A stretch of DNA of 64,000 bases, from positions 1,937,170-2,001,169 of the forward strand of contig CBDCKB010000004.1 of assembly GCA_965217995.1 (NCBI GenBank). The letters are read 5' to 3'. The notes below the pieces were generated by a model. The model made no database searches, was not told the origin of the DNA, and worked only from the letters and a program-made list of their open reading frames with translations. This document shows positions 23,831-33,445 of this stretch, in pieces. Source of the stretch: Rhodobacterales bacterium (GTDB lineage: Bacteria > Pseudomonadota > Alphaproteobacteria > Rhodobacterales > CAZPXZ01). A program made the translations under genes and the position numbers. The first letter of the stretch is position 1, and each line of letters begins with the position of its first letter.

Positions 23831-24492
23831 TCCCGGCCCTTCCCGAATTCCTCGGCAAACAACTGCCGCGAAGCGTTCTCCGCCGACTCCCGCGGAAGGT
23901 CCTGCAGCACGCAGCCCCCGCCCGCCGGTTCCGACGCGAAACGGCCGGTGGCCGAGCCCGGCCGGGGGCGCTCGCCGCGGCGGAAGGTCGCGAGAATCTC
24001 CCGCAGGGCCTCCGGCGTCAGATCCTCGTAGAAATCCTTGCCGATCTGTACCATCGGAGCGTTCGCGCAGGCCCCCAGGCACTCCACCTCCTCCCACGAG
24101 AAGTCACCCTCCCCGTACAGGGTCTTCGGCTCCGGGCCGAGTTCCCGGCGGCAGAGATCCAGCAGCGCGTCGGAGCCGCAGAGCATGCACGGCGTGGTGC
24201 CGCAGACCTGGAGATGCGCCCGCCGTCCCACCGGGGCGAGATGGAACATCGAGTAGAAACTCGCCACCTCCAGCACCCGGATCGAGGCCATCCCCAGCAT
24301 GCCGCCGACACATTCCATGGCCGCCACCGACAGCCAGCCTTCCTGCTCCTGGGCACGCCAGAGAAGCGGCAGGATCGCGGAGGCCTGCCGGCCCTCCGGA
24401 TACCGGCCGATGCAGGTCTCGGCCCAGGCAAGATTGGCCTCCGTGAAGGCGAACCCGTCCGGCTGGTCCGCGCTGCGGGGGAGCGCGCTCAT
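23827..24492 (-). CDS. nuoE: NADH-quinone oxidoreductase subunit E
   Basis: [11 protein letters not shown] and [10 protein letters not shown] 2Fe-2S motifs. Confidence 0.96.
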
Positions 24493-25691
24493 CGATCAAT
24501 CTCTCCGAACACAATGTCGAGCGAACCCAGCACCGCGGAGACATCCGCCAGCATGTGCCCCCGGCACATGCGGTCCATCGCGGCAAGATGCGGATAGCCG
24601 GGAGCCCGGATCTTGGTGCGGTAGGGCCGGTTGCTGCCGTCGGAGACCAGATACACGCCAAATTCCCCCTTCGGGGCCTCGACCGCGGCATAGATCTCCC
24701 CGGCCGGCACGCGGAAACCCTCCGTGTACAGCTTGAAATGCTGGATCAGCGCCTCCATGGAGCGTTTCATCTCGGCCCGGCCCGGCGGCACGATCTTGCT
24801 TTCCGGCGCAACCACCGGACCGTCGGCCGAGGCCAGGGATTCGAGACACTGGAGCATGATCGAGACCGACTGGCGCATCTCCTCCACCCGGCAGAGATAG
24901 CGGTCGTAGCAGTCGCCGTTCCGGCCGACCGGAATCTGGAATTCAAAATCGCTGTACCCCTCATAGGGCTGGGCCCGGCGCAGATCCCAGGGCAGCCCGG
25001 TGCCCCGGAGCATCACGCCCGTAAATCCCCAGGCCTGGGCCTCCTCGGCCGTGACCGTGCCGATATCCACATTGCGCTGCTTGAAGATCCGGTTCTCGGT
25101 CAGCAGCGACTCGATATCGTCCAGCACCGCCGGAAAGGACTCGCACCAGGCCCCGATATCCTCGGCCAGCCCGGGCGGCAGGTCGCGATGGACCCCCCCG
25201 GGACGGAAATAGGCCGCGTGCAGGCGGGCCCCGCAGACGCGCTCGTAGAAGACCATCAGCTTCTCGCGCTCCTCGAAGCCCCAGAGCGGCGGCGTGAGCG
25301 CACCGACATCCAGGGCCTGGGTGGTGACATTCAGAAGATGGCTGAGGATCCGGCCAATCTCGCAATACAGCACCCGGATCCGGGACCCCCGATGCGGCAC
25401 CTCCAGCCCGAGAAGCCCCTCGATGGCCAGACACCAGGCATGCTCCTGGTTCATCGGCGCGACATAGTCGAGCCGGTCGAAATACGGCAGGGCCTGCAGA
25501 TAGGTCTTGGATTCGATCAGCTTCTCGGTGCCCCGATGGAGCAGGCCGATATGCGGGTCCACCCGATCCACGATCTCGCCGTCCAGTTCCAGCACCAGAC
25601 GCAGCACGCCATGGGCGGCCGGATGCTGGGGACCGAAATTCAGGTTGAATTTCCGTTCCCCTGGCGGCCGGACAGCGGTTTCCTCCATCAC
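24489..25691 (-). CDS. nuoD: NADH-quinone oxidoreductase subunit D
   Basis: [15 protein letters not shown] and [13 protein letters not shown]. Confidence 0.97.
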
Positions 25692-26293
25692 TCCCGCTCC
25701 CCGTCCCCGGCGTCGCGCACCGCCGCGGCCCCCTCCCAGGGCGAGAGAAAATCATAGTCCCGATACGCCTGCACCAGCCGCACCGGCTCATAGGCGACCC
25801 GGCCGCGCGTCTCGTCATAGCGGAGTTCGACAAAGCCGGTGAGCGGAAAGTCCTTGCGCAGCGGGTGGCCCTGAAAACCGTAATCCGTGAGAATCCGGCG
25901 CAGATCCGGATGGCCGGCGAACTCGATCCCGTACATGTCGAAGACCTCGCGTTCGTACCATTCCGCCGACGGATGCGCATCCACCGCACTCGGCAGGGTC
26001 TCGCCCTCCGGCACCGCGGCCTTCAGGCGAAGACGCGAGGTATACGAGATCGAGAGCAGATGGTAGACGACCTCAAAGCGGGGTTCGCGCCCGGGATAGT
26101 CGACGCCGCAGACATCGATCAGGGTGGTCATGCGAAGCGCGGGGTCATCGCGCAGCCCGACCAGCACCCGGACAATCCCGGCCGGGGCCACCGAGATCGT
26201 CAGCTCGCCATGCGCCTCGGAAATCTGAAGCGCCAGCTCCCCGAGGCACTGCATCGCGGCGGCGCGCAGATCGTCGAGCCGGCGGTCCACCAT
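25688..26293 (-). CDS. nuoC: NADH-quinone oxidoreductase subunit C
   Basis: [11 protein letters not shown]...[23 protein letters not shown]; start at 26293 or 26299. Confidence 0.95.
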
Positions 26294-26305
26294 CACCAAG
26301 GGGAC

Positions 26306-26854
26306 TTACCGCACCCGTGTGCCGGTACGGCGGATCTTGCGCTGCAGCTGCAGGATGCCATAGAGCAGCGCCTCGGCGGTGGGCGGACAGCCGGGCACAT
26401 AGATGTCCACCGGCACGATCCGGTCACAGCCGCGGACCACCGAGTAGGAATAGTGGTAGTAGCCGCCGCCATTGGCGCAGGAGCCCATCGAGATGACATA
26501 GCGCGGCTCCGGCATCTGGTCATAGACCTTGCGCAGGGCCGGGGCCATCTTGTTCGTCAGTGTGCCGGCGACGATCATGACATCCGACTGGCGCGGGCTC
26601 GCGCGCGGGGCAAAGCCGAAACGTTCCACATCGTAGCGCGGCATCGCCGTGTGGATCATCTCCACCGCGCAGCAGGCAAGGCCGAAGGTCATCCAGAACA
26701 GCGACCCGGTGCGGGCCCACTGGATCAGACTCTCGGACGAGGTGACCAGAAAGCCCTTGTCGGCGAACTCCCCCGACAGCACCCGCAGATCCGCTTCCGA
26801 TCCGGCCGGAATCTCCGCCTCCGTCACTGCCACTCCAGAGCCCCCTTCCGCCAC
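26306..26854 (-). CDS. nuoB: NADH-quinone oxidoreductase subunit B
   Basis: [20 protein letters not shown] and [10 protein letters not shown]. Confidence 0.97.
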
Positions 26855-27189
26855 TCATAGGCGAAACCCACCGTGAGAACGGCGAGGAACACCATCATCG
26901 ACCAGAATCCGAAGGCACCGATATCGCGGAAGGCGATGGCCCACGGGAACAGAAACGCCACTTCAAGATCGAAGATGATGAACAGCAGCGCCACCAGGTA
27001 GAAGCGCACATCAAAGCGCATGCGGGCATCATCGAAGGCATTGAAGCCGCATTCGTAGATGGACAGTTTTTCCGGATCCGGATGGCGTACGGCCAGCACG
27101 ACCGCGGCCAGAATCAGCCCCGCCCCGATCGCCACGGCAATGCCGAGAAAGATCAGGATCGGCAGATATTCGCGGAGAAGACTTTCCAT
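26824..27189 (-). CDS. nuoA: NADH-quinone oxidoreductase subunit A
   Basis: [20 protein letters not shown] and [10 protein letters not shown]. Confidence 0.97.
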
Positions 27190-27245
27190 CGATTCCCGCC
27201 TCTACCGCCAAGATCGGGCAAGGCCGAGCGGTCGATCCACAAGGT

Positions 27246-27274
27246 GTTCTATTCGCTGCCGGGGGCCGGGTCAA
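27246..27274 (-). promoter_or_regulatory. Candidate sigma70 promoter of the nuo operon
   Basis: TTGACC-N17-TAGAAC on the minus strand, ~57 nt upstream of nuoA. Confidence 0.55.
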
Positions 27275-27294
27275 GCGACCGCCCGGCGGTGCCA

Positions 27295-27380
27295 GGGCGA
27301 ACTGATGCCGGGCGGCTGTCCGTGCGGCCCTGACCGGAGTTCCGAGGGTTTCCAGCCAACCCGTTCCCGGGAGGGCCGCA
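27295..27380 (+). mobile_element. Decayed IS481 left-end remnant
   Basis: ggctgtccgtgcggccctgaccggag...gttt...caac...tcccgggagggccg aligns with 18003-18068. Confidence 0.65.
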
Positions 27381-27559
27381 CCGACGAGCAAAATCCGGCA
27401 GGCGGCCGCCCGGACCCCTTCCCCGGGGGCCGGCAGGAAGCGTCCGGCCGGGCCGGGGTTCCCGGAGCGCAGAGCCAGGCGCGGGGGCCTCGGGAGCGGA
27501 GACCGGCACGCCCGGGAGACCGGAGGTGCCGGTCCGATATCCCTCCGGAGCCGCGGATC

Positions 27560-27588
27560 TTGACTCGCGGGCGACCGGTTGCAATTCT
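27560..27588 (+). promoter_or_regulatory. Candidate sigma70 promoter upstream of the rpn gene
   Basis: TTGACT-N17-AATTCT. Confidence 0.3.
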
Positions 27589-27860
27589 GTCGGCACGCCT
27601 GTGGCCTGTGGAATGCGGGGATCGATCATGAATTGTCCGACTGCCCGCAGAACCCGTTCTGCCATAACCTCCGCGGCTTCGCGGAGGTGCGGTTCGCTGC
27701 ACGCAACCGCAGCATTTTCCGGACCGGAACCATCACCCGTTACCCGCCGCTGCCTGCTCCCACCAGGGTCGGCAGATTTCAGAAAAACGGTCGGTACGGA
27801 TGTTTCTTCCCGAAACAGACCCACCGAAAAGCCAAGACACAAGACACGGTGGTGTTTCCG

Positions 27861-28988
27861 ATGGGCGCCCAAAAGCAACCCCCCTCCAGCTCGAAGCTAC
27901 CGAACAGGCGACGGCTGGATGGATGCTACAAGAGGATGTTCAGCCATTCGGAGATGGTCCACGACCTGATTGCCGGATTTCTGGTTCCGTCCTGGAGTGA
28001 CAGGCTGGATTTTTCTACGCTGACAAACATGTCAGCCAATTTTGTGAGTCCGGATCTGAGATCTCGTCAGGCTGACAAGGTCTGGCGCATACGCTTTCGT
28101 GACAGCGAGCAAGAGATATTCTTTCTGACTGAATTCCAGGATCGGGACGACCCGCTCATGGCTGCGCGCATGAATACCTATGTCGCGCTGCTGTATGACG
28201 CTATTACCCAGAACCGGGCGAGTGGTCGGCCGCGCGGTGAACTGCCGCGGATATTTCCGGTCGTCCTCTCCAGCAGCCTGGGAAAATGGACCGAAGTGCT
28301 GAATATAGCGGAGATGATCACACCCGGGACGGAAGTGTCGACCTGGAACGGAGAGGTCTGGCTGCTGCCGTCCCTGCAGTATTTTGTGCTTGACTTCTCG
28401 AAACACCCGTGGACAGAATTAGTGCCGGACAACTTGGTGACGTTCCTGATCGGGCTGAATCAAATCCTGATCGAGCTGAATCAAGAACTGCCGTTCCCAG
28501 AGGAACTGCAGCCGGTGGTGATCGGTCTGAACAAACGGTTGCGGAGCATTGGCAATGCCGAACTTGCCAGAACGTTCAGCACCTGGAGCATGGAGGTTCT
28601 AATGAAGGATGATCTGATTGACAGCAATCTGCACCCGCTGGACCAGATGGAGCAGATAGAGGATGCAGTGGTAAACCAGCCGGCCTCGGATTGGGCCAAG
28701 CCGTGGATTTTGGGAATCCATGCGAAAGGCCGCAAGGAAGGCCGCAAGGAAGGCCGAGAGGAAGGCCGAGAGGAAGGCCGAGAGGAAGGCCGCGAAGAAA
28801 TACTGGGCGTCATTCGGGCAAGTCTGTGCCATCAGGCGGCATCAAAATTTGACCCGGAAACCCTCGAACGACTGACCAATCATCTGGATCGGATATCCGA
28901 CCTGAAATCGCTTCTGGAAATTTACGATCGGCTCAGCAAAGGCGAAACCGGCACCGAGTTGCTCAAATGTCTTGATGATCGGTCATAA
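27861..28988 (+). CDS. Rpn family recombination-promoting nuclease / putative transposase (PD-(D/E)XK, Transposase_31-like)
   Basis: DGCYKRMFSHSEMVHDLI, LDFSTL, SPDLRSRQADKVW, LTEFQ, MAARM..YVALLY, LPRIFPVVL and EGREEG repeats before a helical C-terminal domain; start 27861 approximate. Confidence 0.88.
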   Translation: MGAQKQPPSSSKLPNRRRLDGCYKRMFSHSEMVHDLIAGFLVPSWSDRLDFSTLTNMSANFVSPDLRSRQADKVWRIRFRDSEQEIFFLTEFQDRDDPLMAARMNTYVALLYDAITQNRASGRPRGELPRIFPVVLSSSLGKWTEVLNIAEMITPGTEVSTWNGEVWLLPSLQYFVLDFSKHPWTELVPDNLVTFLIGLNQILIELNQELPFPEELQPVVIGLNKRLRSIGNAELARTFSTWSMEVLMKDDLIDSNLHPLDQMEQIEDAVVNQPASDWAKPWILGIHAKGRKEGRKEGREEGREEGREEGREEILGVIRASLCHQAASKFDPETLERLTNHLDRISDLKSLLEIYDRLSKGETGTELLKCLDDRS

Positions 28989-29005
28989 GCAAGAGGATTC
29001 TGAGA

Positions 29006-29416
29006 ATGGATAAACTGGTTGACCGCAATCTGAACCAGATGGACCCGATGGAGGAAGCGGTGGAAAACCAATCGGACTCAGATTGGCTCAAGCCGTGGAT
29101 TTTGGAAATCCATGCGGAAGGCTACAAGGAAGGCTATGCGGTAGGCTATGCGGCAGGCTATGCGGAAGGCTATGCGGAAGGCCGCAAGGAAAGCCACGAG
29201 GAAGGCCGTGCGAAAGACCACGAAGAAGCACTGGCCGCAATTCGGGCAAGACTGTGCCATCAAGCAGCATCGAAATGGGATCCGGAAACCCTCGGACGGC
29301 TGACCAATCATCTGGATCGGATATCCGACCTGGAACCGCTTCTGGATATTCACGAGCGGCTCAGCAAAGGCGAAACCGGTGCCGAGTTGCTCAAATGTCT
29401 TGATGATCGGTCATAA
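29006..29416 (+). CDS. Stand-alone Rpn C-terminal domain protein, copy 1 (DUF4351-like)
   Basis: SDWLKPWILEIH...LCHQAASKWDPETL...LLKCLDDRS nearly matches the Rpn C-terminus; AGAGGA before the ATG. Confidence 0.8.
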   Translation: MDKLVDRNLNQMDPMEEAVENQSDSDWLKPWILEIHAEGYKEGYAVGYAAGYAEGYAEGRKESHEEGRAKDHEEALAAIRARLCHQAASKWDPETLGRLTNHLDRISDLEPLLDIHERLSKGETGAELLKCLDDRS

Positions 29417-29433
29417 GCAAGAGGATTCTGAGA

Positions 29434-29808
29434 ATGGATAAACGGATTGACCGCAATCTGGACCAGATGGAGCAGATGGAACAGATAGAGGAAGCGGTGG
29501 GAAACCAGTCGGACTCAGATTGGCTCAAGCCGTGGATTTTGGAAATCCATGAGGAAGGCCGCAAGGAAGGCTATGCGAAAGGCTGCAAGGAAGGCTATGC
29601 GGAAGGCTGCAAGGAAGTGCGGGACAGAGTGCGAAAGATACTGTGCCATCGGGCGGCATCAAAGTTTGATCCGGAAACCCTCGAACGGCTGGCCAATCAT
29701 CTGGAACAGATATCCGACATGGATTTGCTTCTGGACATTTGCGGGCGGTTCTACGAGAACGAAACAGGTGCCGAGTTGCTCGAATACCTGGATGGCCGGT
29801 CCGGGTAG
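29434..29808 (+). CDS. Stand-alone Rpn C-terminal domain protein, copy 2 (DUF4351-like)
   Basis: Same motifs (LCHRAASKFDPETLERL) with a more diverged tail; identical upstream RBS. Confidence 0.8.
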   Translation: MDKRIDRNLDQMEQMEQIEEAVGNQSDSDWLKPWILEIHEEGRKEGYAKGCKEGYAEGCKEVRDRVRKILCHRAASKFDPETLERLANHLEQISDMDLLLDICGRFYENETGAELLEYLDGRSG

Positions 29809-29880
29809 ATCGGACACGTTCTTTCTTGGATCCTGCCGACGGGACGCATTGCCGACGGACCGACGGACTCCCATTCACCT

Positions 29881-32760
<2,880 letters not shown>

Positions 32761-32911
32761 GAACTACCCCGCTTGCCTGCCCGACCCAGGTCGATGAAAG
32801 TGCTGCTGCCGTGCAGGCTGTGGCACATTGCCGGAAGATTCTATATTGTTATGCGTACCGCGTGATTGTTATGCGCGCCGCATTCCGAGTGTAACCGAAG
32901 GAGGTACTGCT

Positions 32912-33445
32912 ATGGCCGGATCCATCAACAAGGCGATTATCATCGGGAACCTCGGGAACGACCCAGAAATCCGGCATACGCAGGACGGCCGGGCCGTCGC
33001 CAATCTCAGCGTAGCGACCAACGAAAGCTGGAAAGACCGCAGCACGGGCGAGCGGCGGGAACGGACGGAGTGGCATCGGGTTGCGATCTTCGATGAGGGG
33101 CTTGTACGCATCGTCGAGCAATATCTCCACAAGGGGTCGAAGGTATATCTCGAGGGCCAGATCCGTACCCGCAAATGGCAGGACAAAACCGGACAGGATC
33201 GCTACTCCACGGAAATCGTGCTGCAGCGGTTCAACTCGCAGCTGCAGATGCTCGACAGCCGCCGCAACGAGGACGATTACGGGGATGGAGGCCGGAGCGG
33301 AGACGACCACGGCCGACGGGGAGACGACCAGGGGCGGCGCGAAGGCGGCCGTTCGTCGAGACCCGGCGCCGCCGCCGGGTATGACGACAATTTCAGCGAT
33401 CCAAGCGGTGACGGTGACGGCAGCGACGAAGACCCTCCGTTCTAA
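32912..33445 (+). CDS. ssb: Single-stranded DNA-binding protein
   Basis: [25 protein letters not shown], acidic tail DEDPPF; AAGGAGG RBS. Confidence 0.97.

Follow-up and report, generated by a model that had tools for sequence, protein, structure and literature searches.

We describe a locus in which a gene for an Rpn family nuclease is followed, on the same strand, by two free-standing variant copies, or cassettes, of its own C-terminal domain. It lies in the genome assembly of a Rhodobacterales bacterium (GCA_965217995.1, contig CBDCKB010000004.1, positions 1,937,170 to 2,001,169; this whole stretch of 64,000 nucleotides is the window, to which all locus coordinates refer). Very probably, the locus belongs to the known type in which an rpn gene is accompanied by a small downstream gene, rpnSs, and the array is likely to have originated by unequal recombination mediated by a tract of four-amino-acid repeats. 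The best explanation of the whole, to which we assign a probability of about 0.45, is an rpn-rpnSs toxin-antitoxin locus whose extra cassettes act mainly by recombining alternative tails. The evidence comprises the hybrid structure of the first cassette, the recurrence of cassettes across the rpn paralogs of the same genome, the mismatch in repeat number between each cassette and its own rpn, and the reassortment of heads and tails in related assemblies.

Rpn genes are toxin-antitoxin systems in which the C-terminal product of an internal start, RpnS, blocks the full-length nuclease, RpnL, and in Escherichia coli separate rpnSs genes lie downstream of rpnE (where the gene is called ypaA) and of rpnC, as described in the main text of Zhong et al. 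(2023, PNAS, PMC10400941). An earlier reading of the same DNA, made from the letters alone (hereafter the sequence-only reading), had named the toxic nuclease and its internal antitoxin in agreement with this account but had taken the arrangement of gene and copies for one that had not been described as a system; in the light of the rpnSs genes, that part of the reading is to be dropped.

Two cassettes derived from the 3' end of rpn

The rpn gene (27861-28988, plus strand) encodes a protein of 375 residues and is followed on the plus strand by copy 1 (29006-29416, 136 residues) and copy 2 (29434-29808, 124 residues), both rpnSs-like. The sequence-only reading saw in these two open reading frames repeats of the last ~130 residues of Rpn, and indeed their proteins are 70% and 60% identical, respectively, to the rpn tail as read from 28587. 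A repeat finder covers all three units with three-copy direct-repeat families of 300 and 209 nucleotides, and, within the genome, the rpn tail has its best nucleotide matches in copies 1 and 2. The cassettes hold the tail domain alone, with neither a nuclease part nor a second gene. The proposed reading frame of rpn stands as an open frame from 27861 to 28988, with the qualification that alignment of the paralogs leaves GTG 27849 as a possible alternative to the ATG at 27861.

The spacers in front of the two copies (28989-29005 and 29417-29433, plus strand) are identical, 17 nucleotides each, GCAAGAGGATTCTGAGA. They had been read as former coding sequence that supplies each unit with its own Shine-Dalgarno (SD) sequence and ATG, and this is borne out by the alignment: the spacer, extended by the final A of the preceding stop codon, aligns gap-free to rpn 28587-28610, with 16 of the 24 bases identical by hand count. 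The copies carry AAGAGGA eight nucleotides before the ATG, which in this alignment stands one codon later than the internal ATG of rpn.

The relationship among the three units changes along their length. The repeat tract, with boundaries set by us, spans 30 residues in rpn (28710-28799, EGRK/EGRE dodecamers), 42 residues in copy 1 (29102-29227, three repeats more than rpn) and 26 residues in copy 2 (29539-29616, one repeat fewer), all on the plus strand. Before the tract, copy 1 agrees with copy 2 at 15 informative sites and with rpn at 2, whereas after the tract copy 1 agrees with rpn at 35 informative sites and with copy 2 at 9 (head versus tail, Fisher p=1.7e-6), so that the suspected mosaic, with a copy-2-like head and an rpn-like tail, is clearly present. 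The heads of both copies are just 61-65% identical to the rpn head, and the tail of copy 2, the most diverged unit, shares 75% nucleotide identity with the tails of rpn and copy 1. The switch of copy 1 falls within the four-amino-acid (12-nucleotide) repeat tract, which is itself mixed, its first half consisting of EGYA dodecamers as in copy 2 and its second half of EGRK/ESHE/EGRA as in rpn.

The array probably arose in two steps. First, the rpn 3' end would have been duplicated in tandem from a point 14 nucleotides before the internal ATG, which is why each copy would keep an SD sequence and a start. Subsequently, an unequal crossover within the 12-nucleotide repeat tract, between the rpn tail and the downstream copy on the other chromatid, would have generated the hybrid copy 1 and, by duplicating the junction of tail, stop, spacer and head, would have left two identical spacers.

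Recurrence of cassettes among the rpn paralogs of the genome

The 2.55-Mb assembly encodes nine full-length rpn paralogs (loci A to I, the present locus being G), with 41-50% identity to this rpn, and a motif scan complemented by inspection yielded 20 tail units, of which 11 are free-standing and 9 form part of an rpn gene. Downstream cassettes accompany eight of the nine rpn genes, namely, one at five loci and two at three loci, including this one; locus F is the single rpn without a cassette of its own. Measured from the W..W motif to four residues before the [IFV]R..L[CY] motif, the tracts of rpn and cassettes have, in residues, lengths of 22/30 at locus A, 34/6 at B, 30/18 at C, 26/38 at D, 14/26 at E and 30 at F; at the three-unit loci, the lengths are 30/42/26 at G, 14/30/10 at H and 46/34/22 at I. 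With the boundaries set in this manner, all 20 lengths (6-46 residues) equal 2 modulo 4, showing that the four-residue period is maintained, and in each of the 11 cassettes the length differs from that of its own rpn.

The distance from a stop to the next start varies among the loci (17/17, 61/61, 90-93, 300/300 and 317-395 nucleotides), and all these spacers are homologous to that part of the rpn coding sequence which lies upstream of the internal start; given the different spacer lengths, the rpn 3' end has been duplicated at several independent boundaries. SD and ATG are retained in 10 of the 11 cassettes; in the remaining one, E1, the head has decayed and stops lie upstream. Elsewhere in the genome, many cassettes are young, with flanks that are 96-100% identical. 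The assembly also contains a solitary fragment of 50 codons from an Rpn tail (G000:C4:1494907-1495056), 46% identical to residues 323-372 and with no adjoining rpn.

Locus I contains a head/tail switch similar to that of copy 1 (p=1.2e-5); at locus H, the third three-unit locus, such a switch is not significant. At loci B and C, the heads are identical inside each locus (0 differences in 108 nucleotides) but the tails are closer crosswise (11 of 186 differences between the rpn of B and the cassette of C, B0-C1, and 10 of 186 for B1-C0) than they are within the locus (22 and 19 of 186) or by position (17 and 15). From these counts, it looks as though the two tail types of loci B and C have exchanged places.

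Reassortment in related assemblies and the evidence of reads

When copy 1 was compared with 5.8 billion proteins, the 412 candidates included 12 matches at E<=1e-3, namely, the protein of the window itself, 9 close relatives with 53-89% identity and 2 distant matches that involve the repeat only. Eight of the nine close relatives, all free-standing, are distributed as 3, 3 and 2 on three large contigs, and the ninth resides on a small contig. All but one of the nine begin with MDKLVD, the start that is created by the junction at this locus. We split 13 units, that is, the nine relatives, the three units of the window and the tail of the RpnL orthologue P0013, into head, tract and tail. Three head types and three tail types emerge, with tracts of 10-42 residues (10-34 in the nine free-standing relatives) whose lengths again equal 2 modulo 4, and 7 of the 9 head-by-tail combinations are present. 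The free-standing P0004 and P0009 bear the head type that in the window is found inside rpn, and the tail type of copy 2 is intact in three other assemblies, at 86-95% protein identity. Full-length genes vary in the tract as well: P0013, with an N-terminal domain near-identical to that of this rpn, has a tract of 14 residues compared to 30 here, and P0016, the orthologue of paralog E, has 50 compared to 14. In P0014, another rpn orthologue, the tract is followed by ~45 unrelated residues and then by a copy-1-type tail, which looks like either two units fused with a shift of frame or an artefact of gene calling.

Other surveys of relatives yielded less. The DNA of related loci gave 61 pattern matches in genome contigs and 77 in metagenome contigs, with 0 confirmed in either set. 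This Rpn subfamily was found in 0 of 30 related genomes, 2 of which contain distant matches only. Translated comparison (tblastn) of copy 1 with 50,697 phage records produced no match, and that collection thus gives no hint of a mimic carried by phages.

The possibility that the array is an assembly artefact, a collapsed or mis-expanded repeat, draws some support from the public short reads, as the contigs of four runs fragment across the array and none spans it; those of X1 and X3 contain the N-terminal part of rpn and the uvrA flank at ~99% identity, and X1 may be the sample of origin. However, unitigs from two further studies join a unit tail, the 17-nucleotide spacer and a copy head (X4, 28954-29156; X5, 28941-29082), the three units differ from one another at 15-25% of positions and in tract length, seven other loci share the layout with different sequences, and other assemblies contain 2-3 such small proteins per contig. 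An artefact thus seems very improbable.

A divergent Rpn nuclease with a putative intragenic antitoxin frame

The large gene encodes a PD-(D/E)XK nuclease of the YhgA/Rpn family. Residues 20-203 match PF04754 (Transposase_31, YhgA-like) with a score of 59.3 bits, compared to a cutoff of 21, whereas the NCBIfam model of the Rpn family, TIGR01784, is matched over the first ~100 residues only and below its cutoff (23.8 versus 52.1 bits), which places this rpn in a divergent subfamily. When the protein is aligned with E. coli RpnE and six homologues, D72, E91 and Q93 do not vary, and their spacing (19 and 2 residues) equals that of D63, E82 and Q84 of RpnA, residues that are essential and the mutation of which abolishes activity according to the text of Kingston et al. 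(2017, PMC5350276). The D...ExQ motif is visible in all nine paralogs, and plasmid-borne homologues with 28-36% identity to rpn carry the annotation of Rpn family nuclease. PADLOC reports no match to an Rpn model at the locus. Weak matches to FliH and Yae1_N were rejected because they are due solely to the composition of the EGxx repeats.

A tandem direct repeat of 21 nucleotides, TCCTGATCG[G/A]GCTGAATCAA, occurs twice inside rpn (28444-28484), encoding LIGLNQI/LIELNQE; a contig of run X3 is without one copy (21 nucleotides omitted at 28465), and the stretch is also shorter in P0013 and P0014.

Within rpn, GGAGG at 28592-28596 precedes the in-frame ATG 28602 by five bases, and this internal translation start (28592-28604) is common to all nine paralogs, in which an in-frame ATG, preceded at 5-8 nucleotides by an SD-like GGAG(G), occupies the equivalent place in the alignment. 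By analogy with the systems of E. coli (PMC10400941), the frame of 128 residues from 28602 to 28988 is a putative RpnS. Judging from the family and the conserved start, RpnL is probably a DNA endonuclease toxin and RpnS its matched antitoxin. The tract begins 32-36 residues past the methionine, compared to 8-20 in the other RpnS proteins covered by the main text of PMC10400941.

A profile made from 28 tails matches the C-terminus of 20 of the 22 Rpn homologues annotated with PF14261 (65 homologues were retrieved), with E-values from 3e-12 to 1e-4 that are to be read with the small database and the biased composition in mind. An AlphaFold2 model of copy 2 is all-helical and confident only at residues ~60-122 (predicted local distance difference test, pLDDT, about 80-88).

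What the cassettes may do

The preferred explanation holds that the cassettes recombine with the 3' end of rpn, which they would do through the tract and the conserved flanks. A cassette that lands in rpn would yield a new RpnL together with a matching new RpnS, given that both are read from the same DNA. That the cassettes serve as a recombination reservoir for the rpn 3' end is a tentative proposition, to which we give somewhat less than an even chance. The sequence-only reading had already suggested cassettes of this kind; the hybrid units and the reassortment of heads and tails agree with the suggestion, but a replacement in progress was not seen in the reads. A bolder version, which we consider rather doubtful, is that arrays of tail cassettes are a diversification device, such that a stored head, tract or tail enters rpn and the pairing domain and the intragenic antitoxin change together in one step and remain matched; the nuclease itself may initiate the exchange. 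If this were true, a cell could change the sensitivity of the trigger or evade antitoxin mimics made by phages, and would at no point have to survive a lethal mismatch of the pair.

The copies might instead be extra antitoxins, the other idea of the sequence-only reading, that bind their own RpnL despite the mismatch, or the RpnL of another paralog, providing dosage, separate regulation or cross-immunity among the nine toxins. Such a role fits with the retention of SD, ATG and open frames, and the commentary of Koonin (PMC10400984) suggests that a second RpnS copy decouples the regulation of toxin and antitoxin. Furthermore, some tract lengths are shared with a related RpnL, namely, 30 residues between the first cassette of locus H and the rpn of locus F (H1 and F0), F being without its own cassette, and 22 residues between the second cassette of locus I and the rpn of locus A (I2 and A0). 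However, both of these cross-locus matches differ in tract sequence and, among ~11 lengths, could be due to chance. In E. coli RpnC, one repeat more or less in one partner only abolishes neutralisation, according to the main text of PMC10400941, and the mismatch with the own rpn extends to 11 of 11 cassettes. Under this rule, copies 1 and 2, with tracts three repeats longer and one repeat shorter than that of rpn, are predicted not to neutralise the adjacent RpnL; the divergence of their heads from the rpn head speaks against extra antitoxins as well. A complex prediction for the RpnS of rpn with copy 1 (score 0.24, mark 0.32) is evidence in neither direction. On balance, we regard extra antitoxins as an unlikely function of the copies.

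Selection on the copies bears on another alternative, in which they are functionless by-products: the tract, perhaps with the nuclease, would make the 3' end prone to tandem duplication and unequal exchange, and the products would persist briefly and decay. By the Nei-Gojobori method, the ratio of nonsynonymous to synonymous substitution rates (dN/dS) is near 1, as this explanation would have it, with values of 0.4 to 1.0 for the tails at other loci. Among tails inside full-length rpn genes, dN/dS is likewise high (2.05 for F0-H0), which makes fast protein evolution a property of the tail domain. Also in favor of by-products are the very recent origin of many cassettes, the decayed head of E1 and the RefSeq label of pseudogene on E. 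coli ypaA. In addition, a sample of 400 genomes of the phylum, with 10 candidates per genome scored against the subfamily-specific tail profile, includes 25 genomes with matches, nearly all of these matches within frames of 330-390 residues, and adjacent multiples occur in none of the 25, so that Rpn systems do not in general require arrays.

Nevertheless, copy 2 is old, with a tail dS of about 0.41 to the other units, yet its frame is still open and its counterparts in the three other assemblies are intact. Under simulated random substitution, the frame of copy 2 remained open in 11% of cases with 12.5% of positions changed and in 2% with 25% changed, which is moderate evidence, short of proof, that the open frame of copy 2 matters. 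Moreover, SD and ATG are included in all cassettes but E1 despite the differing boundaries of the duplications, and the RpnESs protein of E. coli was detected, as stated in the main text of PMC10400941. Functionless by-products are, in our estimate, an improbable account of the array.

Several observations weigh against recombining cassettes in an rpn-rpnSs locus. The rule that a single repeat difference prevents neutralisation rests on one E. coli protein, RpnC, which lies outside this family, and hybrids and reassortment would also be expected of functionless by-products of a recombination-prone repeat. The dN/dS of the tails of the three units here, 0.66-0.67, is not significantly below 1 (binomial p 0.17-0.28), and the intact frames of the young cassettes say little because of the near-identity of the flanks. 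The tail lacks a match to PF14261 (DUF4351) at E-values up to 10; among solved structures, a sequence search of the PDB found nothing relevant and Foldseek found nothing at E<=0.001, and the tail model yielded, via a wide structure search, generic helical matches only (best Z 7.0). RNA runs are 0 among the 8 listed public runs. Finally, the Logan contigs of X1, X3, X4 and X5 contain no within-sample variant indicative of a swap in progress; a tract-to-tract joint in X4, from 28734 to 29199, has a depth of 2.1 and a 20-nucleotide side and is too weak to count, and maybe reflects a strain difference. The same applies to a joint in X3 from 29115 to 29200, which spans 84 nucleotides, or 7 repeats, at a depth of 4.6.

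According to the main text of PMC10400941, Zhong et al. left open how the repeat number of Rpn expands and contracts and what the rpnSs genes do. The present genome offers natural data on both questions, with twenty tail units, hybrids with breakpoints in the tract, the reciprocal-looking swap between loci B and C and head and tail types that reassort across related assemblies. If the cassettes are a reservoir, cassette switching would have its first example among toxin-antitoxin defence systems; if not, the locus is an ordinary rpn-rpnSs pair with an extra duplication.

Promoter, leader and surroundings of the rpn block

An upstream alignment of the nine paralogs shows a hexamer of the TTGAC[A/T] type in front of all of them (ATGAC in one), represented here by the -35-like TTGACT at 27560-27565 on the plus strand; the -10 element is weak, and a consensus promoter scan did not flag the hexamer at 27560. 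Between the putative promoter and the rpn start lies a conserved non-coding leader of ~270 nucleotides (27595-27860, plus strand). Four paralogs share ~72% identity with the leader of the window over 243 nucleotides, and four others share 71-75% over 125-154 nucleotides; this conservation is at least as high as that of the N-terminal coding DNA, and indels of 1 nucleotide are present. Rfam has no match on 27200-30000, leader included, and RNAalifold predicts 56 pairs in the leader, 5 of them with a compensatory change. Possibly, the leader is an RNA that regulates these toxin genes in cis.

A fragment of 108 nucleotides elsewhere in the assembly (G000:C4:948970-949076) resembles the 3' part of the leader (73% identity) and has no rpn match adjoining it; it is maybe an orphan remnant. 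At loci B, C, E, H and I, an element of ~40 nucleotides, GGAATGCCCGATG..AGTGATTGC.., stands directly before the -35-like hexamer and recurs near I, and is perhaps a dispersed repeat. Fragments recognised by eye, the translation of which resembles what we take to be the C-terminus of an rve-type (IS481/IS3-like) transposase (...HHNHIRPHAAPGGRTP...), flank loci B, C and E (L003, L002, L006).

A terminator-like hairpin (29799-29815, plus strand), with a T-rich run after it, overlaps the stop of copy 2; it comes from a consensus scan alone, which found 6 sites compared to 3.3 expected. Given the 17-nucleotide spacers and the location of such a hairpin only after copy 2, the copies probably share with rpn a transcript that starts at the conserved promoter and includes the leader, and each copy is probably translated from its own SD and ATG.

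The rpn block sits between nuoA (26824-27189) and uvrA (29881-32760), both on the minus strand, and has a G+C content of 51-57%, compared to 62-74% in the flanks. These flanks (24489-27189 and 29881-33445) consist of housekeeping genes, namely, a nuoD/C/B/A-like operon, uvrA and ssb, as named from their translations. Judging by composition and neighbours, the block is a low-G+C insertion among housekeeping genes, outside any defence island.

Comparison with known systems

The closest counterparts are the rpnE-ypaA and rpnC-rpnCSs pairs of E. coli, each with a free-standing copy of the tail on the same strand, derived from the gene upstream, started at a duplicated SD and ATG and differing from the source by four-amino-acid repeats. 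In strain K-12, the stop TAA of rpnE is followed by a spacer of 12 nucleotides, AAGGAGAGATTA, as opposed to 17 here, and by the ATG of ypaA, so that the SD (AAGGAG) and the start of the internal RpnE_S frame are duplicated. The ypaA product has 61 residues versus 57 in the internal frame, with KLEGL in place of M (QEGKLEGLHEQ versus QEGMHEQ), a net difference of four residues; the C-terminal ends differ too. The junction is built on the same principle as at the present locus, and both ypaA and every cassette in the present genome are length variants of the neighbouring rpn. Unlike rpnE-ypaA, the locus described here has two tandem cassettes, a hybrid in the middle position, and a recurrence of the arrangement at 8 of 9 paralogs of an alphaproteobacterial-type genome, and its tail, at 124-136 residues, is about twice as long as E. 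coli RpnS and the ypaA product (57-61 residues) and is without a PF14261 match. The gene-within-gene systems RpnA, RpnB and RpnP2 resemble this rpn in the PF04754 domain, the D...ExQ motif, the internal SD and ATG, the helical tail and the strain-variable tract of four-amino-acid repeats, but the present locus, with putative toxicity, neutralisation and phage defence, differs in lying between nuoA and uvrA rather than in a defence island and in having no PADLOC match.

In the literature searched, free-standing Rpn tail copies are dealt with only by Zhong et al. and the commentary by Koonin; the supplement of the former (S1B, S3, Dataset S1) may hold multi-copy cases. Compared with its main text, the features that go further are the two-cassette array with a hybrid in the tract, the presence of cassettes at eight of nine paralogs, the universal mismatch of tract lengths, and the reassortment of heads and tails.

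The arrangement has parallels beyond the Rpn family. Orphan modules of Rhs and contact-dependent inhibition (CDI) systems and the silent cassettes of pilE/pilS are truncated 3' cassettes that are located downstream of the complete gene, have a conserved junction in common with it and can take the place of its variable end through homologous recombination. Unlike these, the cassettes described here hold a dimerisation/antitoxin domain with starts of their own, and are neither a toxin-immunity pair nor a surface antigen. In the HsdS subunits of EcoR124I and EcoR124II, as cited in the main text of PMC10400941, how many four-amino-acid TAEL repeats a helix contains determines the specificity of a defence protein; the HsdS repeat sets the spacing of the DNA target, whereas the Rpn repeat would set protein-protein pairing.

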